Part shown: positions 1 to 6,510 of the stretch, piece after piece | Numbering within the stretch: the first letter of the stretch is position 1 | Layout of the letters: each line of letters starts with the position of its first letter | DNA from: a virus | Direction: 5' to 3' (one strand) | Virus record (IMG/VR): IMGVR_UViG_3300045988_011095 | Span: 1 to 6,510 of that record | DNA length: 6,510 bases | Program-made: the position numbers and the translations under genes | The notes under the pieces: model-generated | Seen by the model: only the letters and a program-made list of their open reading frames with translations | Told to the model about the DNA's origin: nothing | Databases searched by the model: none

Positions 1-119
1 AGACCACCAACGATTGCCAGAAGTAGGAAGAGTTTGAACAATATTTCCATAACCAAGATAGCTCAACAACTTAAAAGCCAAATCTCCACGGTTAAAGCCA
101 AATGAATTCGCAAAAAAAC
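1..119. repeat. Terminal redundancy: left copy of the circular-genome overlap, identical to 6392..6510
   Basis: Base-by-base comparison shows 1..119 (agaccaccaacgattgccag...gcaaaaaaac) equals 6392..6510 with no mismatch. This implies a 6391-nt circle. The repeat lies inside the VP1 ORF and keeps its frame. Confidence 0.95.
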
Positions 120-540
120 CAGAATCAGCAGGGCTATTAGAAGAACCATTCAAACGATAAAGGATAAAATTCAAAACACTTAAAGACACAGAAGGCAAAT
201 AAGTTCCAAGCGACAGATTCTTAGTCAAAGACAAAGCTTGAACTTGATTAACGTCCTGCATCTGAGTCAACACAGAAGGAGCGGACTTCCAAAGAAGCCG
301 TAACGGCACAGCATAGAAATCAAAGTATTCACGCAAACGGGTATAAGCAGAAGTTTCAACGGGCTGAGTACGAGTAAAATACTCAATGCTGAATCTATAC
401 TTGTCACCGGGCATAGAAATATCCCAATAAACGGGAAGAAGCTCACCAACTTTCGCAGTAAATGCATTTTTGCGTCCAATATCAAATCCAGAACGATGCG
501 GACGATTTTGAAGATTGGACATTCCAGTATAAGAAGCCAT
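1..540 (-). CDS. VP1: Major capsid protein VP1 (F-like), N-terminal 180 codons; the ORF leaves the left edge and continues at 6391 across the circular junction (full protein 616 aa)
   Basis: ATG at 540..538. My hand translation is MASYTGMSNLQNRPHRSGFDIGRKNAFTAKVGELLPVYWDISMPGDKYRFSIEYFTRTQPVETSAYTRLREYFDFYAVPLRLLWKSAPSVLTQMQDVNQVQALSLTKNLSLGTYLPSVSLSVLNFILYRLNGSSNSPADSGFFANSFGFNRGDLAFKLLSYLGYGNIVQTLPTSGNRWWS. There is no stop, and it ends on a codon boundary at position 1. It is in frame with ORF 5081..6472 and shares the peptide AFKLLSYLGYGNIVQTLPTSGNRWWS. The FD..(K)xFT..xGeLxPV..PGD....R..P...Y....VP.RLLW pattern is the conserved Microviridae capsid N-terminus. The ORF is missing from the track only because it has no in-window stop. 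Confidence 0.93.
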   Translation of the reverse strand, partial: MASYTGMSNLQNRPHRSGFDIGRKNAFTAKVGELLPVYWDISMPGDKYRFSIEYFTRTQPVETSAYTRLREYFDFYAVPLRLLWKSAPSVLTQMQDVNQVQALSLTKNLSLGTYLPSVSLSVLNFILYRLNGSSNSPADSGFFANSFGFNRGDLAFKLLSYLGYGNIVQTLPTSGNRWWS

Positions 541-573
541 AAAACAAAAATTAAAAAATTAAACAATGAAGGG

Positions 574-2271
574 TTAGTCCTGATAAGAAAAGATACCAAA
601 CATATCATTAATCTTCTTGTGCTTAACCTTATCTCGACATTTCATCAATGAAGCAGCAGCCAAGCGACGAACAAGAGGAAGTTTATAGTAGGGTTCTTCC
701 TTATCACGGACAGACCTATTATAACGAAAAGAATAATTACGAAGTTCAAAATCTACCAAATCCTTATCATTAGAATCTTCCAAGGTTTGATAAAAATCTA
801 CAAGACGCATATAATCATAACGATTCCAAAAAGTAACTATTTTTTCAGAAATTATTCGTAAGAATCTTTCTCGACAAAAGAGTTCTCCTCCAGAAGTGCC
901 GCTGGACCAGAAGAGTCCTGAACATCCATCTGTTGAATATGTTCGAATAAATTTTGCAATTCCGAGGAAAAAGCGATAGACGCGGGAGAGACGGTGAGTA
1001 GTTTCCAAATCAACACCATCATACAAACGACATTCAGTAAGAATGAGAACATCACTATGCGGTAAATTCGCTTGAGGAGATAACAAGTTCTTAAATTCAT
1101 TTGATTTTCCATAATTATCTACATAATTTAAATACTGTTTACAAAAAGACAAAAGACTTTGCTTTGAATTTTCAACAAACGGATCACATCCTATATCAGC
1201 GCATCCGCTACGAATGACTCGTGCGGGTGCTGTGAACGCAGCAAATAATAACTGATAAATACTCGATGGAGATTTACGAATAGCGTCTGAAAATCGGGGG
1301 AATAATCGAAGGAGATACGGCCACGAAGGTTTAAGAATCCGAAAGTAGCCATCCCGTTCAATGCGTACTCCATTAAGACACTTATCGGTAACTTCATCAA
1401 TTTCGGATACTCGCACCTTTCGAGGGAAGAGATTTGACTCTGTAAATCCAATGGAGTGGAAGGATTTTGGGCGCAAAAATCTTGGCATCTCTGTGTAAAA
1501 AGAGGGTAAAGCGACAAAGCTATTAACATACGACGCAACATAAGGTGCTGCGAATCCTCGCGAGAGTGTCGCATCACAACGGCCATAAGACCAAGCTTTA
1601 GATACATTTTCAAGAATAGTTTTCGAGAACTGTTCGGAATTGGAAAACAATAACAAATGCCAATGCGGGCGATAACTCGTCGGCCCATATTCTGATACAG
1701 CGTAGTAACGTAATTTCTCATAAGGGTAATAACTTCTTAAACGTTTCAAAAATAAATCAAGGTCACGATTACAAATATAAGGAATCCTATTCGGAACATT
1801 ATGATTAATCTTACTCATAATAGAGAGGAATTCCTTAGGCTTCATAGGATAAGAAAACCGAACCTCAGGGTCCTTAAAAGTACGTTCAACAGTAGAATTT
1901 TTCAGCTTGATAGAAGCGGAGCGAGGAACGCTACGAAAACCAAACAAATAACGATTACTGTCACAAGGGTCCAAGTTATTAATATCGGGAACGCAGGATA
2001 CATCTGCAATATCATCCGTACAAGTTTCGATAATCGAAACCTCCAAAGTAGGAAGAAAGCAAGGAGCATAAGTAAGAGTGACAAAATATACAAAACGGAA
2101 TTGAGCAGAATAAGTAGTAAGCAGGTTTGTCTGAATACCGGAACGACGAAGAACGCATGAAGGACAAGTACCACAAGAAACAACAACAGGTTCATGCGTA
2201 TACTTATTGACAACCGTACGAGGATTCTGGCAACGAGTTACCAACTTATTCTGTAATTCCTTAGTAATCAT
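574..2271 (-). CDS. VP4: Rolling-circle replication initiator VP4 (phiX174 gpA-like, HUH superfamily), 565 aa
   Basis: All three RCR motifs are present in order. Motif I is FVTLTY (aa 63-68, nt 2068..2085, checked against the DNA). Motif II (HUH) is HWH in RPHWHLLLF (aa 203-205, nt 1657..1665, checked). Motif III is YVASYVN, with two Tyr three residues apart (aa 244/248, nt 1522..1542), as in phiX174 gpA YVAKYVNK. The ATG overlaps the stop of the upstream ORF (ATGA at 2268..2271). Confidence 0.93.
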   Translation of the reverse strand: MITKELQNKLVTRCQNPRTVVNKYTHEPVVVSCGTCPSCVLRRSGIQTNLLTTYSAQFRFVYFVTLTYAPCFLPTLEVSIIETCTDDIADVSCVPDINNLDPCDSNRYLFGFRSVPRSASIKLKNSTVERTFKDPEVRFSYPMKPKEFLSIMSKINHNVPNRIPYICNRDLDLFLKRLRSYYPYEKLRYYAVSEYGPTSYRPHWHLLLFSNSEQFSKTILENVSKAWSYGRCDATLSRGFAAPYVASYVNSFVALPSFYTEMPRFLRPKSFHSIGFTESNLFPRKVRVSEIDEVTDKCLNGVRIERDGYFRILKPSWPYLLRLFPRFSDAIRKSPSSIYQLLFAAFTAPARVIRSGCADIGCDPFVENSKQSLLSFCKQYLNYVDNYGKSNEFKNLLSPQANLPHSDVLILTECRLYDGVDLETTHRLSRVYRFFLGIAKFIRTYSTDGCSGLFWSSGTSGGELFCRERFLRIISEKIVTFWNRYDYMRLVDFYQTLEDSNDKDLVDFELRNYSFRYNRSVRDKEEPYYKLPLVRRLAAASLMKCRDKVKHKKINDMFGIFSYQD

Positions 2272-2576
2272 TTTCTATTAGTAAAATCAAGTTCCATTTG
2301 ACGAGGCTTACGACCACGAGCAAAAGAAATATGAACAAATGTACGATATTTTATAAGCTGGTCAAATTTAAAAGGAGAACCTTTAATCTTCAAGATAAAA
2401 CCGTCAACAGAAGAATCGACAGGTTTTAGATCAATGGCATCACCGGTCAAGTGCTGAGATGTTTTAGAACCATTACACATATCATTCTGTTCTTCAGTAC
2501 GAAAAGCGGAAGTAACAGTAAAATGAATATTCCGACGGAGAAGCCACTCAACGAATTTCATTAATTCTAGATTCAT
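2268..2576 (-). CDS. Small zinc metallopeptidase of the M15/LAS type (VanY / D-Ala-D-Ala carboxypeptidase-like fold); candidate peptidoglycan hydrolase (endolysin), 102 aa
   Basis: SAFRTEEQNDMCNGSKTSQHLTGDAIDL matches the S-x-x-R...N...G..x-S-x-H-x-x-G-x-A-x-D signature of peptidase_M15-type cell-wall peptidases. The candidate zinc ligands are H42 (nt 2451..2453), D49 (nt 2430..2432, H-x6-D spacing) and H82 in FVHISF (nt 2331..2333); all three codons were checked in the DNA. There is no signal peptide and no extra binding domain. Third codon positions are T-rich, as in the other genes. Confidence 0.72.
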   Translation of the reverse strand: MNLELMKFVEWLLRRNIHFTVTSAFRTEEQNDMCNGSKTSQHLTGDAIDLKPVDSSVDGFILKIKGSPFKFDQLIKYRTFVHISFARGRKPRQMELDFTNRK

Positions 2577-2579
2577 GAC

Positions 2580-2669
2580 TTACGAAAATATTTGAGCAAT
2601 AGACGTAAGAAGACTGACAGCAGCTGCAATAACTGCAGACCAAATTTTAGATTTAGTTTCACTTTTCAT
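2580..2669 (-). CDS. 29-aa single-pass membrane peptide (MKSETKSKIWSAVIAAAVSLLTSIAQIFS); candidate holin-like or membrane-disrupting partner of the peptidase
   Basis: ATG at 2669..2667, TAA at 2582..2580, 3 nt upstream of the peptidase ATG. It has a Lys-rich N-terminus followed by a roughly 20-residue hydrophobic stretch. Third positions are strongly T-rich (AGT ACT TCT ATT TCT GTT ATT GCT GCT AGT CTT CTT TCT ATT GCT), matching the genome-wide coding signature. The track's 62-aa version (TTG at 2768) extends into a frame that lacks this bias and overlaps the better 57-aa ORF. Confidence 0.5.
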   Translation of the reverse strand: MKSETKSKIWSAVIAAAVSLLTSIAQIFS

Positions 2670-2832
2670 CAGGTATAGCTTTAAATGTTGAACATTGAGA
2701 AATGATAAGAATACAATCTGGACGAAGATTTGAAGAAACAAATGCAGAAACTTCGTCAACAGATACAAGAACAGTTTCGTTCTGATTAGGATTTACCTTT
2801 GACTGGATAGAACACAAATAATACTTTTCCAT
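2659..2832 (-). CDS. 57-aa hypothetical protein, first gene after the promoter (MEKYYLCSIQSKVNPNQNETVLVSVDEVSAFVSSNLRPDCILIISQCSTFKAIPDEK)
   Basis: Hand translated: ATG at 2832..2830, TGA at 2661..2659. It falls below the ORF-track length cutoff. Third positions are T-rich (TAT TAT TGT TCT AAT CCT AAT ACT GTT CTT TCT GTT GTT TCT TTT GTT TCT AAT CTT CGT GAT TGT ATT CTT ATT TCT). Its end overlaps the start of the 29-aa peptide by 11 nt. I recognise no family. Confidence 0.5.
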   Translation of the reverse strand: MEKYYLCSIQSKVNPNQNETVLVSVDEVSAFVSSNLRPDCILIISQCSTFKAIPDEK

Positions 2833-2858
2833 AAACTTAAAAATTTAAAATGAACATT

Positions 2859-2870
2859 GTTTTTAAAAAC
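2859..2870. repeat. Perfect 12-nt A/T-tract palindrome GTTTTTAAAAAC at the predicted transcription start region
   Basis: Read directly. A near-identical copy, GTTTTTAAAAAAAC, lies 32 nt away at 2891..2904. The two copies bracket the -7 box. Confidence 0.8.
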
Positions 2871-2874
2871 AGTA

Positions 2875-2907
2875 CAAAGATATAAATCAAGTTTTTAAAA
2901 AAACAAA
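2875..2907 (-). promoter_or_regulatory. Candidate Bacteroides-type promoter: -33 TTTG (2907..2904), 21-nt spacer, -7 TATCTTTG (2882..2875)
   Basis: The minus strand reads catTTTGtttttttaaaaacttgatttaTATCTTTGtactg. This fits the Bacteroides consensus TTTG-N19-21-TAnnTTTG. It sits in an approximately 18% GC spacer, about 43 nt upstream of the first ATG of the gene string (2832). The -7 motif alone would be expected a few times by chance in a genome of this composition; the support here comes from the paired -33 box and the location. Confidence 0.45.
2891..2904. repeat. Second copy of the A/T-tract palindrome (GTTTTTAAAAAAAC), inside the promoter spacer
   Basis: Read directly. It differs from the 2859..2870 copy by two extra A. 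Confidence 0.75.
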
Positions 2908-2950
2908 TGCTCATATAACTTATTAACATAAATAACCAATAAGCTGGATG

Positions 2951-3052
2951 GGTGGCAGGCTGGTCTGTGAGTTTGCGTATATAAGACAAGAGAAGACCGA
3001 AAGCGATGAGTTAAATCGCTTTCCCGTTGGGCAAACTCATGTAGGTTTCACC
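2951..3052. other. Structured domain I: three nested helices
   Basis: The outer helix is GGTG 2951-2954 with CACC 3049-3052. The middle helix is TGAGTTTGC 2968-2976 with GCAAACTCA 3031-3039, and on the + strand it can extend by G2967-T3040 and T2966-G3041 wobbles. The inner hairpin is GAAAGCGAT 2999-3007 with ATCGCTTTC 3015-3023 and a 7-nt loop, gagttaa. An alternative pairing, ATGAGTT 3006-3012 with AACTCAT 3034-3040, competes with both inner helices. Confidence 0.5.
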
Positions 3053-3125
3053 AAATATACAGAGACTTTAAGGAATTTTTTATTATTATGCTCGCTGTGC
3101 TCGCACGTTCTTCACTGCGTTCATC

Positions 3126-3167
3126 ACTTAGGCGGTTCTTCTTCCTCCGGACTTGAACCGTTTAAGT
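3126..3167 (+). other. 13-bp hairpin with a 16-nt pyrimidine-rich loop (ttcttcctccggactt); contains tandem G-T wobbles that exist only on the + strand
   Basis: ACTTAGGCGGTTC 3126-3138 pairs with GAACCGTTTAAGT 3155-3167. G3131-T3162 and G3132-T3161 are wobbles on the + strand and would be C-A mismatches on the - strand. Confidence 0.55.
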
Positions 3168-3195
3168 AAATCGGCCAGACGGGGTCGCAAGCGAC

Positions 3196-3205
3196 GGGGT
3201 GTATA
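3196..3205. repeat. GGGGTGTATA direct repeat, copy 1; part of GACGGGGT-N7-GACGGGGTGTATA
   Basis: Read directly. GACGGGGT occurs at 3178..3185 and 3193..3200, flanking the GTCG-CAAG-CGAC mini-hairpin. GGGGTGTATA recurs at 3330..3339. Confidence 0.8.
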
Positions 3206-3239
3206 GCAGCGACGAGAGAGAACAGTTCTCCGAGAGATT

Positions 3240-3267
3240 GCTTACGCGTTGCAAGCGTCAAGCTTTT
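3240..3267 (+). other. Hairpin GCTTACGC/GCGT(C)AAGC followed by TTTT on the + strand (weak terminator-like element for a hypothetical + strand transcript)
   Basis: 3240-3247 pairs with 3255-3263 (8 bp, C3259 bulged, 7-nt loop), then TTTT follows at 3264..3267. The T-run is short and I found no + strand promoter, so the hairpin is solid but a terminator role is speculative. Confidence 0.25.
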
Positions 3268-3293
3268 AGGATGGCAGTACTATAGCCTAACGG

Positions 3294-3331
3294 CTCTGAT
3301 TCCAGTCGACGGAGTCTCCCGGAATTCAGGG
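3294..3331. other. Hairpin CTCTGATTCC / GGAA(T)TCAGGG enclosing a 17-nt loop
   Basis: 3294-3303 pairs with 3321-3331 (10 bp, including a T3295-G3330 wobble on the + strand, with T3325 bulged). The loop is agtcgacggagtctccc. Confidence 0.45.
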
Positions 3332-3339
3332 GGTGTATA
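3330..3339. repeat. GGGGTGTATA direct repeat, copy 2
   Basis: Identical 10-mer, 134 nt downstream of copy 1. Like copy 1, it starts at the 3' foot of one hairpin and runs into the next helix. Confidence 0.8.
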
Positions 3340-3357
3340 ACCACGCTATGCGTGGTT
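3339..3357. other. Perfect 8-bp hairpin AACCACGC-tat-GCGTGGTT
   Basis: Read directly: 3339-3346 pairs with 3350-3357, with a 3-nt loop. Confidence 0.6.
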
Positions 3358-3371
3358 GCCAAAAGTTACTC

Positions 3372-3409
3372 CAAATAACAAAACCCGGCACGTATCAAGT
3401 ACGGCCGGG
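3372..3409 (-). terminator. Rho-independent terminator of the gene string, 24 nt downstream of the VP2 stop
   Basis: The GC-rich stem is 3384-3389 and 3391-3394 paired with 3400-3409 (10 bp, A3390 bulged, 5-nt loop). On the minus strand it is followed by TTTTGTTATTTGG (3383..3371). On the + strand it is followed by an A-run, so it is orientation-specific for the minus strand. Confidence 0.6.
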
Positions 3410-3432
3410 CAAATGTAAAAAAATTAATCAAA

Positions 3433-4581
3433 TCAATGATTATAATTATGATTATAATTAGTACTAGAACTTGTGCTATGACTAGTGGACTGAGAGAATG
3501 ACTTAGAAATAATCCTACGAGGTAAGAAATTACCTATAGTATTACCAATACTAGTGCCATAATCAATCCATTTATCAGCATCAAAATACTTATACCTCTT
3601 CTTTTCATTTCTAGAACGATACCAGTCTTCAATATTCTTGCTTCGAGCATTATCTTGAGAAAGACCGAGCTTGAGTTCTTCATTATGATAAGCAGCAGAA
3701 GATTGATTAGCGGCAATATTAGCAGCAATTTGAGACTCAGCAATACGAGAAGCAACCTTATTAGAAATGTTTTGACCACGAGCACGAGCAGCGGCTAGAA
3801 CTTCCTCAGCTAGAGACTTTTTAGCATTAGCATAAGAAAGATATCCAGACGCCATACGTTGATAATAATCCGCAGCCTTAACATTCAAATCAAGTTGTTG
3901 ATTTTGGTCAAGATACTTATTTAAAATACCTTTAGACTCATTATCAAGAAGCATACCAGAATGTTGAGCGCGCATAATAAGACCAGTCATTGCCATGTTA
4001 TCAACTTCTTGTTGTTCCTTAGCATAACCAAGTTGAGCGCGAGCCAAGCCGGTAGATTTCAAATAATTACGAGTTTCATCAGTAAGCTTTCCCCAATCAA
4101 TATTAGAAAGAGTTTCCATAGCCTTAGCATCAGCAAGTTGCCGAGCGCCTTGCAATTGAGATTTTTCAGATTGAATCAACTCATATTGGAAAATGTTACC
4201 AATGGAAGAACCTATACCGGAATAATCAGCCTGAAAAGGCTGCATAACAGCATTTCCAGAAGAAGTAGCAGCAGAACCAGTACCAACAGATTGAGCTACA
4301 CCGGCGGAACCACCATTCATCATCAGATAAGGATTCAAACCAGCTTCTTCGAGACGTTGACGTTGCGCGGATGCAGTATTATATGCGTTTTCCTTGTTCC
4401 ACATATTTTCCTGAAAATCGCGCTGCTGCATAGCCATACGCTCGTTAAACTGGTTGTTCATCTGGTTAATCTTATAATTCATCTGGTTAGTCTCCTTGAC
4501 ATTTTGTCTATTCTGCGAGTTCTGAAGAGCAGAAGAACCAAGGCCAAAGAGACCACCAGCGATTGAACCAAAAATACCCAT
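3433..4581 (-). CDS. VP2: VP2-like minor capsid / DNA pilot protein, 382 aa
   Basis: It has a Gly-rich hydrophobic N-terminus (MGIFGSIAGGLFGLGSSALQ), then a Q/N-rich segment, long predicted helical A/Q/E-rich segments and a low-complexity S/T/N tail. Its size, composition and position next to the capsid and scaffold genes fit microvirus VP2/H-type proteins. Its ATG overlaps the upstream stop (TAATG, 4579..4583). The assignment rests on composition and synteny, not on a motif. Confidence 0.65.
   Translation of the reverse strand: MGIFGSIAGGLFGLGSSALQNSQNRQNVKETNQMNYKINQMNNQFNERMAMQQRDFQENMWNKENAYNTASAQRQRLEEAGLNPYLMMNGGSAGVAQSVGTGSAATSSGNAVMQPFQADYSGIGSSIGNIFQYELIQSEKSQLQGARQLADAKAMETLSNIDWGKLTDETRNYLKSTGLARAQLGYAKEQQEVDNMAMTGLIMRAQHSGMLLDNESKGILNKYLDQNQQLDLNVKAADYYQRMASGYLSYANAKKSLAEEVLAAARARGQNISNKVASRIAESQIAANIAANQSSAAYHNEELKLGLSQDNARSKNIEDWYRSRNEKKRYKYFDADKWIDYGTSIGNTIGNFLPRRIISKSFSQSTSHSTSSSTNYNHNYNH
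3436..3459. repeat. Perfect 12-nt tandem duplication (atgattataatt x2) at the 3' end of VP2, encoding NYNH-NYNH before the stop
   Basis: Read directly: 3436..3447 equals 3448..3459. On the minus strand this is AAT TAT AAT CAT AAT TAT AAT CAT TGA. Confidence 0.9.
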
Positions 4582-5063
4582 TATTCAGCAGAAGCAGCAT
4601 TAGCGGAAGCAGCGGCCGCTTTTTCTGCCTCTTGTTTAGCGGTTTCAGCGTCAATTAAAGATTGAGCTTCAGATTCCAATTTTTCAGCACAAGCTGACAA
4701 CTCTTTAGACCAAGCAAGGATTTCAGAAGGAGACTGAATATAACGAGAACGAACAGTAGACAAAAGGTCGTTATCGGACATAGTATCCATTATTTGCTGA
4801 AGCTGAGAAGGAGATTGTTTACTTTGTCCAAACTTAGAAGCTACATCAATACCAGCACGTAATGCCAAGTCTTTGGCATGAAGAATCAAATGAATATCAG
4901 AAGTATAACGTACCGGACGAGATTCGTCAGTATCATCAATTTCTACACGAAGCTGTTCCGTAGAATCAAACTGTGGAGCAACTGCAAAATCATCAGGCTC
5001 GACATTAGGAATAAGTCCAGAACCTTGTTCCAAACTATTCAAATTATTAAATTTTCCAATCAT
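4581..5063 (-). CDS. Acidic roughly 160-aa protein between VP1 and VP2; possible internal scaffolding (VP3-like) protein
   Basis: This is the track ORF 4581..5090. Its start at 5090 is a TTG that overlaps the VP1 stop, whereas the first ATG is at 5063..5061 (MIGKFNNLNSLEQG...), 17 nt after the VP1 stop; I prefer the ATG. The protein is D/E-rich with an Ala/Glu-rich helical C-terminus (AETAKQEAEKAAAASANAASAE). The scaffold role is inferred only from size, charge and position. Confidence 0.6.
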   Translation of the reverse strand: MIGKFNNLNSLEQGSGLIPNVEPDDFAVAPQFDSTEQLRVEIDDTDESRPVRYTSDIHLILHAKDLALRAGIDVASKFGQSKQSPSQLQQIMDTMSDNDLLSTVRSRYIQSPSEILAWSKELSACAEKLESEAQSLIDAETAKQEAEKAAAASANAASAE

Positions 5064-5080
5064 AATCAAAACAAAATTTA

Positions 5081-6510
5081 TTAAGCCCAACCATCAGCAG
5101 ACAAATTACGGGCAACATAACAACCAATATAAGAGTTAACCAAAAGCTGGTCAGTATCCCAAGTAGAATCCGCATTAACTCCAAATATCGAATCAAGAAC
5201 AGAAGGATTAACCTTAAAGAACTTATAATTCAAAACAACATTGTTATTCTGATTAACATCACCTTCATTGTATCCAAAACCAAACCATCCGGAAAGGAGA
5301 GACTCCGTAACAGGAGATACCCAAGATTTGAGAGTAGTAGTAAAGGCACCATTGATAACATCAAGCTTGGTCTTCCAATTAAAGTAACGAGGATTATAAC
5401 CAGCATTAAACAGATTAACTATAGAGGCTTTCGGAGAATTGAAAATCTGTGTCATAGGGAGAGTTTCCATACCAATATTATCAAACTCGGGAATAGGAAG
5501 GGATTCCGCATCAGTTACCAACAATTGACCATCCTGACCAGTGATAGTATAATCAAGCAAAGGAACGGCATGATAAATACACATAACGACACAATGTTCG
5601 TTAGTAGTGTATTCAAAAGTGCCATTACCGGCACCGACACCTTTACCAGCAATAACAGCAGTATCACCTTCTCCAGCAAGATTATTATTGACAACTTCAC
5701 TGATATCAAGATTACGGGAAATACCACCGATATAAGTACACAAATTGGAAAGAGACTGTGGTAAGTTCACACCAAAGTGCTTGCGAATCTGCTCACGATA
5801 ATCGGTATCACCAGACTGACTGATTTCTTTCCAACGTTGAAGGGCCTCAGCTTGGCGAAGAGCAAGAACAGAGAATTGAGATTTAAGGGATGACAAATCA
5901 ACATGAAGCTTAGAACCTGCAGGTACAGTATTAGATGCAGAAGCATCAAATGCAAAAAAGGGAACCGGAGCAGTACCATTAGTAACAGCAGAAGCAATAG
6001 ATACAGTACTATTTTTCGAGTCTTTTCCCAAAAGGACGTCAGAATCTCCAAAAGAACCTATATCAATAACAGAAACATCACCAAATTGAGAGTTTGGGAG
6101 AACACCCATTAACATGTCTTTGTTCCAATTACAATATTTGAGGTCAAACATTGTGTCAGATTTCCAATAGGAAGAAGAAGATACAGGAATAGTAGAAGTA
6201 GTAAATATAGAAGGAGCAGTACCAGAATAGTAATCTACATTATAAGATGAAGGATTGGATTTTTCCCATTGAGACCAACGGAAAAAGTCTTGATAAATTT
6301 TCTGATAAGCAAGAATAGGGAAAATATTAACAACAGTATTTTGAATATAGGCCTGAGTATAAGAAGAAGAAGTGTTATACTTCAAAGACGTAGACCACCA
6401 ACGATTGCCAGAAGTAGGAAGAGTTTGAACAATATTTCCATAACCAAGATAGCTCAACAACTTAAAAGCCAAATCTCCACGGTTAAAGCCAAATGAATTC
6501 GCAAAAAAAC
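5081..6510 (-). CDS. VP1: Major capsid protein VP1, C-terminal part (the ORF enters from the right edge; the true N-terminus is at 540..1 across the circular junction)
   Basis: The frame stays open from the window edge: 6508..6473 reads FFANSFGFNRGD upstream of the track's TTG 'start' at 6472. It contains the capsid-family motif LRQAEALQRWKEISQSGDTDYREQIRKHFGV (ALQ.W.E....G..Y.EQI..HFGV) and NWNKDMLMGVLPNSQFGD. TAA stop at 5081..5083. Confidence 0.93.
   Translation of the reverse strand, partial: FFANSFGFNRGDLAFKLLSYLGYGNIVQTLPTSGNRWWSTSLKYNTSSSYTQAYIQNTVVNIFPILAYQKIYQDFFRWSQWEKSNPSSYNVDYYSGTAPSIFTTSTIPVSSSSYWKSDTMFDLKYCNWNKDMLMGVLPNSQFGDVSVIDIGSFGDSDVLLGKDSKNSTVSIASAVTNGTAPVPFFAFDASASNTVPAGSKLHVDLSSLKSQFSVLALRQAEALQRWKEISQSGDTDYREQIRKHFGVNLPQSLSNLCTYIGGISRNLDISEVVNNNLAGEGDTAVIAGKGVGAGNGTFEYTTNEHCVVMCIYHAVPLLDYTITGQDGQLLVTDAESLPIPEFDNIGMETLPMTQIFNSPKASIVNLFNAGYNPRYFNWKTKLDVINGAFTTTLKSWVSPVTESLLSGWFGFGYNEGDVNQNNNVVLNYKFFKVNPSVLDSIFGVNADSTWDTDQLLVNSYIGCYVARNLSADGWA
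6392..6510. repeat. Terminal redundancy: right copy of the circular-genome overlap, identical to 1..119
   Basis: See feature 1..119. Confidence 0.95.

Follow-up and report, generated by a model that had tools for sequence, protein, structure and literature searches.

The site at which the single-stranded DNA (ssDNA) of a microvirus starts to be converted to double-stranded DNA, the complementary-strand origin, is to our knowledge known only for enterobacterial members of the family (phiX174, G4 and their relatives). In G4, St-1, alpha3 and phiK, this origin (oric) is a GC-rich, helix-dense non-coding island with several viral-strand hairpins, lying between the capsid and spike genes of a compact genome. 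In phiX174, the primosome assembly site (n'/PriA) is a single hairpin of ~55 nucleotides (nt) on the viral strand of the non-coding F-G gap. Plasmids carry comparable elements (ssoA, ssoU, ssoT, ssoW, and ssi sites such as ssiA of RSF1010): non-coding, strand-specific, structured and host-read, 150-300 nt long, with alternative types that move as cassettes between replicons with unrelated replication proteins (Rep). Mini-hairpins of the kind d(GCGNAGC) and d(GCGNNAGC), which as DNA have extraordinary stability and are bound poorly by single-stranded DNA-binding protein (SSB), are located where primase starts on the complementary-strand origins of G4 (GCGAAAGC) and St-1/alpha3 (GCGTTAGC), and ssiA contains a CCGAAGG mini-hairpin (PMC13037366). 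The gut microvirus literature mentions just "hairpins of uncertain function" (PMC9865509). Here we analyzed IMG/VR virus record IMGVR_UViG_3300045988_011095, positions 1 to 6,510 (hereafter the window, whose coordinates are used throughout), a microvirus genome that is complete and circular (6391 nt, the two ends of the window overlapping by 119 nt). One non-coding island at 2941-3370, 6.7% of the genome, is conserved among gut microviruses. We hypothesize, with roughly even confidence, that it is a host-recognized complementary-strand origin consisting of an array of mini-hairpins on the packaged strand.

By analogy, the island can be likened to the G4-type and plasmid sso/ssi origins, from which it differs in size, modularity and host phylum. 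It shares with the G4-type oric the GCGNAGC or GCGNNAGC mini-hairpins, and one of its hairpins, C2, has the GTTA loop of St-1/alpha3 (PMC13037366). However, it is two to three times larger (300-430 nt), has three to five mini-hairpins instead of one, includes optional and alternative modules, sits between an operon terminator and promoter, and belongs to a phage whose host is probably a member of the Bacteroidota rather than an enterobacterium. We also inspected the G4 origin itself, a 136-nt intergenic island whose GC content is 58% compared with 46% for the genome and which has CGGCGAAAGCCG where the primer is annotated. By eye, with no formal alignment, the loop motif was the only resemblance that we noticed. 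The phiX174 PriA site has the role that we propose for the island, as a viral-strand hairpin in a non-coding gap, but it has neither an array nor the mini-hairpin signature, and is not similar to the island. The sso/ssi elements occur on plasmids, not phages, and have no sequence homology to the island, yet their exchange between unrelated replicons parallels the behavior described below, and the ssiA mini-hairpin resembles two of the island hairpins (A1 and B2-inner). The loop motif CS-6 of ssoA is TAGCGT. This motif occurs in the commonest form of the D hairpin (GCGTAGCGTGG); at 6 nt, the match could be chance.

The island has a GC content of 48.6%, compared with 16.8% in the adjacent spacer (2840-2940) and 37.9% in the rest of the genome, a contrast that a preliminary description of the sequence had estimated (49% for the island, 18% for the spacer and 35% for the genes). 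The same description was right about the density of hairpins, but its count of eight or more becomes ~12, and its anatomy requires revision: the supposed AT-rich linker at 3053-3089 is the 5' part of an optional module B, and the supposed second domain is composed of B, C and D. The island is a composite of four modules, listed here with their hairpins.

2950-3055, minus strand: module A, a three-way junction with a small hairpin (A3), conserved in 129 loci
2968-2975 with 3032-3039, 3001-3021, 3023-3031 and 3044-3052: the outer helix, A2, A1 and A3 of module A
3056-3197, minus strand: module B, an optional insertion, in 21 of ~140 loci (~15-18% of relatives)
3089-3105, minus strand: hairpin B1, with a tandem G·A on the minus strand
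3127-3166, minus strand: long hairpin B2, enclosing the TCC-GGA-GGA mini-hairpin B2-inner at 3143-3151
3184-3195, minus strand: hairpin B3, with a CTTG loop on the minus strand
3198-3338, minus strand: module C, in 141 loci
3216-3231, 3241-3262, 3284-3295 and 3296-3329: hairpins C4, C3, C2 (AGCC-GTTA-GGCT on the minus strand) and C1 of module C
3339-3372, minus strand: module D, the most widespread unit, an 8-bp hairpin (3339-3357) followed by the conserved tail GGAGTAACTT

Some 80% of the relatives have the arrangement A-linker-C-D (~300 nt), and the window represents the longer A-B-C-D form. Module D, whose hairpin has the minus-strand consensus AACCGCGC-GNA-GCGTGGTT, that is d(GCGNAGC), occurs by itself in Dulem virus 262. 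Module C can be replaced by alternative fillings, C' (in L028, L037 and L047; L numbers are our labels for the retrieved genomes and contigs) or C'' (in L076), within the shared borders GGTGTWTAGC and GGTGTATAACC, and module B has suffered partial deletions between TTTAAGG/TTTAAGT direct repeats in L119, L151, L025 and L127. Other variants include L002 and L116, in which the conserved 2x2 mismatch of B1 (the minus-strand tandem G·A) gives way to a fully paired CCGGAC/GTCCGG stem and an additional AGCGCGAAGCGCT mini-hairpin replaces the AT-rich linker, and L074 (~2900-3250), in which part of module C is tandemly duplicated inside the island. The T-loop-like GGUUCAAGUCC of module B was considered as a tRNA-like element and discarded, as it had no ARAGORN or Rfam match.

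Pattern scans and BLAST recovered the element from 16 GenBank microviruses, ~65 IMG/VR genomes and 73 metagenome contigs, mainly of human gut origin, with relatives retrieved through A or D motifs. Scans with the D pattern matched 52 IMG/VR stretches (~45 true elements) and 73 metagenome loci, and gave no match in 185,579 bacterial species reference genomes. All true D matches were in microvirus genomes or microvirus prophages; larger IMG/VR contigs matching the 17-mer had unrelated flanks and were set aside as chance matches. The position of the element is constant, in the single gap between operon end and promoter. Over 130 independent assemblies of microviruses have it in this gap, which excludes a chimera, the artefact against which the preliminary description had cautioned. 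Modules A and C are conserved on par with the genes (83-85% identity), and almost every genome of the window lineage retrieved through A or D motifs retains at least C/D. A few of the retrieved contigs are irregular. L130 is an inverted duplication that likely arose during amplification; in L083 and L100, microvirus genomes are concatenated or chimeric; and in L089, which may be a chimera or an atypical insertion, genes of bacterial origin (ATP synthase, epimerase) run into a microvirus at the capsid gene stop codon.

The claim that the island is non-coding was borne out. In real genes, mismatches occurred at rates of 0.25-0.32 in the third codon position and 0.05-0.10 in the second; the excess at third positions was present in every real gene of the window and absent from the island's open reading frames (ORFs) at 2948-3169(+), 3124-3261(-) and 2837-2989(-). 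Indels with lengths other than multiples of three were frequent in the island. In Dulem virus 257 (L004, PP511330), GenBank annotates a 67-amino-acid "hypothetical protein" at 2580-2783 that spans modules A and C; given the covariation of the hairpins and the lack of a codon-position signal in the island ORFs of the window, it is probably an annotation artefact.

The thermodynamic stability of the single sequence was only modestly beyond chance: folding z-scores against shuffled sequences were -2.9 (plus strand) and -3.1 (minus strand) with RNA parameters, and -1.3 and -1.6 with DNA parameters. The comparative signal was stronger. We tested 85 non-redundant A-C-D elements in the minus sense, covering nine helices and 50 pairs. 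Standard pairs occupied 98.6% of the cells, compared with 25-42% in slid controls, and two-sided changes occurred at 12 pairs (115 cells), values reached by none of 500 shuffles. Module B added seven pairs with two-sided changes, and its covariation score was likewise reached in 0/500 shuffles. The preliminary description had made its structural proposal depend on compensatory changes in the helices, and these were found in several of them. A2 changes from GC to UA in 34/85 elements, A1 also shows compensation, A3 occurs as GGC/GCC, GAC/GTC, GGT/ACC and GAT/ATC, and the outer helix of module A changes from GAGTTTGC/GCAAACTC to GACTTTGC/GCAAAGTC in mar63. In module C, a UA pair of C1 becomes CG in 30/85 elements, C3 alternates between C-G and U·G, and C2 has three compensatory pairs. 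Together with conservation in a size-constrained genome, these changes imply purifying selection on the fold; from the alignments, the island structure is thus under selection. Sequence conservation was so high that a brute-force search for complementary columns yielded too much noise, and a long-range GACG/CGTC pairing was rejected for its 11 A·C cells and few compensations.

Wobble pairs identify the strand. Read on the minus strand, the helices contained 257 G·T cells and 17 A·C cells, of which the latter would count as wobbles on the plus strand. The preliminary description had suggested an asymmetry of this kind for calling the strand. Two wobble positions are nearly fixed (a minus-strand G·T in C1 in 85/85 elements and another in D in 81/85), and at two others C-G alternates with U·G in 30-50% of the sequences. 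These patterns indicate that it is the minus strand that folds; in the window lineage, this is the gene strand and, by the rule assumed for the family, presumably the packaged one.

The terminal loops on the minus strand are G-N-A or G-N-N-A closed by C-G, and each element has three to five such hairpins. The D loop is GNA in 81/85 elements (GCGTAGC, GCGAAGC or GCGCAGC), with GTA in 57/85. The A3 loop is GAA in 83/85 (GGC-GAA-GCC; GGCGAAGCC), the A1 loop is GNA in 78/85 (CCC-GNA-GGG; CCCGAAGGG), and B2-inner has the form TCC-GNA-GGA. In RNA, a preference for GNRA or UNCG loops would be expected. At C2, 82/85 elements have a GN(N)A loop, mainly GCC-GTTA-GGC, with GTTA, GTCA and GCCA rather than the RNA-type GNRA. 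The alternative fillings bring mini-hairpins of their own, ATGCGAAGCAT in C' and GAGTCGAAGACTC in C''. Across 95 genomes, the density of mini-hairpins on the T-rich strand was 12.2 per kb within the element and 0.157 per kb elsewhere, a 78-fold difference, and the opposite strand of the element had 0.35 per kb. These loops would point to folded DNA rather than RNA. Mini-hairpins also occur in the gokushovirus phiMH2K (L154), with an intergenic GCGTCGAAAGACGC on the coding strand at 2982-2995, and on the gene strand of Dulem virus 262 (L009) at 2331-2562 (GAACGTCAGTTC, CGCGTAGCG and CGCTCCGCAAGGAGCG). The signature may be general to microvirus non-coding regions.

The element also occurs in a second microvirus lineage of 5.7-6.7 kb with another gene order and a Rep of 355-397 amino acids, compared with 565 in the window. 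Here, C-D or B-C'-D directly follows the Rep stop codon. Between the two lineages, protein identity is 23-34% over short stretches, and for Rep 30% over 66 residues only. In whole-genome blastn comparisons of the window with L098, L124 and L037, the element was the sole match (85-89% over 158-170 nt); L047 and L037 matched at 92% over 313 nt. By these comparisons, the cassette is swapped between unrelated microvirus lineages.

Of the three functions that the preliminary description had offered without choosing among them (a complementary-strand origin, an independently transcribed structured RNA and a folded-ssDNA recombination site), the first is best supported, by the folding of the T-rich gene strand, loops of the type found in G4, St-1 and alpha3, and exchange between unrelated phages. 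We propose the following course of events. Circular ssDNA would enter a Bacteroidota host and be coated by host SSB, while the GC-rich hairpins with G-N-A or G-N-N-A loops would stay folded and free of SSB. A host priming enzyme would recognize this landmark and make an RNA primer, and a host polymerase would finish the complementary strand. Candidate priming enzymes are DnaG primase, used by G4, RNA polymerase, used by M13 and plasmid ssoA, and the PriA primosome, used by phiX174. We infer both that the folded strand is the packaged one and that priming is its function. Because such a signal would be read by a host factor and not by the phage Rep, the cassette would function in any microvirus of that host, which fits its exchange between unrelated lineages as well as its optional and alternative modules (A, B, C, C', C'' and D). 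The cassette would then be host-specific and read by host enzymes.

Several observations weigh against a complementary-strand origin on the packaged strand. Predicted minimum free energy favors the plus strand, in 92/94 elements with RNA parameters (mean 9.5 kcal/mol) and in 85/94 with DNA parameters (2.65 kcal/mol), and the outer stem of B2 has plus-strand G·T pairs that on the other strand become an AA/CC internal loop. The copy in the window is degenerate, with a D loop of ATA, an A1 loop of AAC and a T-A closing pair in A3, so that C2 (3284-3295) and B2-inner (3143-3151) are its only canonical mini-hairpins. The host is tentatively assigned to the Bacteroidota from promoter type and literature; a scan of bacterial genomes with the presumed att half-site gave one chance match, in a Dojkabacteria metagenome-assembled genome, and did not identify the host directly. 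Furthermore, the cassette is inverted relative to the genes in eight genomes (L001 (mar40), L007 (mar45), L037, L098, L105, L124, L142 and L146), where the minus-strand wobbles and GNA loops are kept. If this inverted lineage packages the coding strand, as assumed for every characterized microvirus, the hairpins lie on the wrong strand there. Finally, composition alone is no proof of packaging polarity, because the coding strand of the cultured gokushovirus phiMH2K is A-rich.

The last two points bear on a possible extension of the hypothesis. On the coding strand, A makes up 52-67% of four-fold sites in the inverted lineage and T 61-65% in the window lineage, and the strand opposite the folded one is A-rich in 117/117 genomes irrespective of gene orientation. 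A T-rich strand that is always the packaged strand was considered as a decisive argument, but the controls weakened it: phiX174 has 63% T and Chp2 50% T at these sites, whereas phiMH2K has 47% A on its coding strand. Tentatively, and with the balance of probability against it, we suggest that the cassette marks the encapsidated strand and that the eight inverted genomes (Microvirus mar40 and mar45 and six from gut metagenomes) package the strand complementary to mRNA. These eight may represent few independent events. If this is true, the family Microviridae would gain its first negative-sense members, and packaging polarity could be predicted from the cassette by sequence alone. We found nothing relevant in the literature on structured RNAs or negative-sense polarity in microviruses.

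Among the alternatives, a structured non-coding RNA (ncRNA) survives best, although we consider it improbable. It could be read from either strand and act as a regulatory or antisense RNA, or as a protective 3' end of the operon formed by terminator read-through. Covariation fits RNA as well as ssDNA, G·U being as natural as G·T, and folding predictions give the plus-strand RNA the higher stability. The plus sense in the inverted lineage directly follows the Rep stop codon with no obvious terminator and is probably transcribed, and the host Usp gene next to prophages L139 and L121 (described below) reads toward the plus sense of A-B-C. RNAalifold proposed a plus-strand closing helix, GGGUGGC/GGUUGCC, with G·U to A-U changes; these changes are one-sided, and we regard the helix as unsupported. 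A plus-strand G·U helix in module A proved spurious, since columns 116-118 covary perfectly with 122-124 in a local GRY-GAA-RYC hairpin. Positive support for an independent ncRNA was not found: an Rfam scan of both window strands, which the preliminary description had advised, gave no match at E<=1, no TTTG...TAnnTTTG promoter occurs on either island strand, and the loops are DNA-type GNA triloops and GNYA tetraloops, not GNRA or UNCG. ARAGORN found no tRNA or tmRNA in the window. The orientation of the element is independent of the direction of transcription, and the wobble strand, downstream of the terminator in the window lineage and antisense to the genes in the other, has no consistent route of expression.

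Less probable still is a viral-strand rolling-circle origin, with nicking and resealing by Rep in the island or its D hairpin, perhaps beside a complementary-strand origin. A nick site on the packaged strand would explain why orientation does not follow the genes; nicks often lie in or beside a hairpin, and D with its flanks is the most invariant part and stands alone in Dulem virus 262. Double-strand origins, however, are normally Rep-specific, whereas here one cassette (85-92% identical) serves lineages whose Reps barely align. Optional and alternative modules are typical of single-strand origins read by the host, not of Rep origins, and no conserved nick-like motif was identified in the element.

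A selfish or neutral cassette, such as a miniature ssDNA transposable element, or a structure that condenses the genome in the capsid, in either case with no role in replication initiation, is very unlikely. The modular, mosaic distribution, the defined borders (TTTnAGG...GTTACT), movement between lineages, the tandem duplications in L074 and the direct-repeat deletions in module B would suit a mobile element. Against this, the D pattern is absent from the bacterial reference genomes, so that the element is neither a host gene nor a host-borne miniature inverted-repeat transposable element (MITE) or IS200/IS605-derived palindrome-associated transposable element (PATE). Modules A and C are as conserved as genes, their compensatory changes imply selection on the fold, and nearly every retrieved genome of the lineage keeps at least C/D.

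A role in lysogeny was judged from two integrated microvirus prophages in metagenome contigs (L139 and L121), neither from the sub-lineage of the window. Both sit in a bacterial chromosome, with a Usp-family gene on one side and genes for TPR proteins and DNA gyrase A on the other. The junctions of L139 (1668-1700 and 8172-8205) are dif-like direct repeats, CAATATCAGGAGAATGTTTAATATAAATAAC and CAATATCAGGATTATGTTTAATATAATGCC (CAATATCAGGA..ATGTTTAATATAA), and the left junction of L121, the one that was read (~5925-5960), has the same motif. Free relatives (L002, L004, L005 and L050) carry the prophage dif-like motif, CAATATCAG.AGAATGTTTAATATAAATAA, as attP. In the prophages, the dif-like crossover is found 60-110 nt left of module A, the distance at which the free relatives have the motif, and the island is intact within the prophage. 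The window has a related but different motif, and its site is uncertain:

2919-2937, no strand assigned: candidate dif-like (XerCD) attachment region, TTATTAACATAAATAAC

These junctions agree with the XerCD/dif model published for such phages (PMC3091885; PMC7062461), which lack an integrase, as the preliminary description had it (PMC3091885). Its proposal of the island as a folded-ssDNA attP, with prophage junctions inside the block, is not supported by L139 and L121, whose crossover outside the island counts against the island as the substrate. The island phages resemble CTXphi in being integrase-less ssDNA phages that use host XerCD at dif, and their dif-like site adjoins the island. In CTXphi attP(+), however, two inverted dif-like sites pair and crossover occurs inside the fold, whereas we found no inverted second dif-like site able to pair with the one beside the island; a CTXphi-like fork between AAATAAC direct repeats flanking the island was dismissed, as the repeats are not conserved. 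Although integrase-less phages do integrate beside a dif-like host site (PMC3091885) and such a site lies 10-110 nt from module A (~70 nt from the element in mar45), a role of the island as an accessory sequence for XerCD or as a CTXphi-like folded attP is the least likely of the readings considered, because a double-stranded accessory sequence would give neither hairpin covariation nor a strand-specific wobble bias, and because adjacency means little where a single intergenic gap houses all non-coding functions.

All genes of the window are on the minus strand, in the order small ORFs, M15 peptidase, Rep (REP_ORF2-G2P domain), major capsid protein, scaffold protein and pilot protein. Its close relatives are annotated gut microviruses of lemur, rodent and marmot feces, and blastn against phage records matched gut microviruses only. 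The island sits exactly between the signals that end and start the gene operon, as the preliminary description had it, correctly for the window lineage:

2875-2907, minus strand: Bacteroidota-type promoter of the gene operon, TTTG-N21-TATCTTTG, flanking the island and not part of it
3384-3409, with a T-run at 3372-3383, minus strand: intrinsic-terminator-like hairpin, read from the sequence, at the operon end and island border

The pattern TTTGN{18,22}TANNTTTG (Bacteroidota consensus TTTG-N21-TAnnTTTG) matched the window twice, with 0.23 matches expected by chance; a sigma-70 promoter scan gave nothing relevant. The second match, an exact one at 2366-2336(-), lies within the peptidase gene upstream of Rep, and judging from its sequence could be an internal promoter. 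The peptidase itself is a 102-amino-acid ORF (2268-2576(-)) with a Peptidase_M15 domain (E 1.3e-10) that overlaps the Rep start by 4 nt and is presumably a lysis enzyme. A simple terminator scan overlooked the hairpin at 3384-3409 because of its bulge and large loop. This hairpin is conserved: 72 distinct relatives have the loop GTAGTGATAC, 7 have GTACTCGATAC and 2 have GTACTTGATAC; the loop is flipped in L065. In the window, the loop on the gene strand is GTACTTGATAC, within which CTTGATA matches the core of the nick site in phiX174 and the pC194 family. We rejected it as a nick site, since it is a minority variant and most relatives have AGTGATA (GTAGTGATAC); the match is probably a coincidence.

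The island thus represents a conserved candidate origin, with defined modules and strand, for gut microviruses associated with Bacteroidota, which are far more abundant than the enterobacterial ones, and takes the signature of mini-hairpin DNA beyond the coliphages into phages of a second bacterial phylum. If our hypothesis is true, such origins circulate as host-specific cassettes among unrelated phages, like the single-strand origins of plasmids, and the element would be needed in ssDNA vectors for Bacteroides or in gut microviruses resurrected from sequence.

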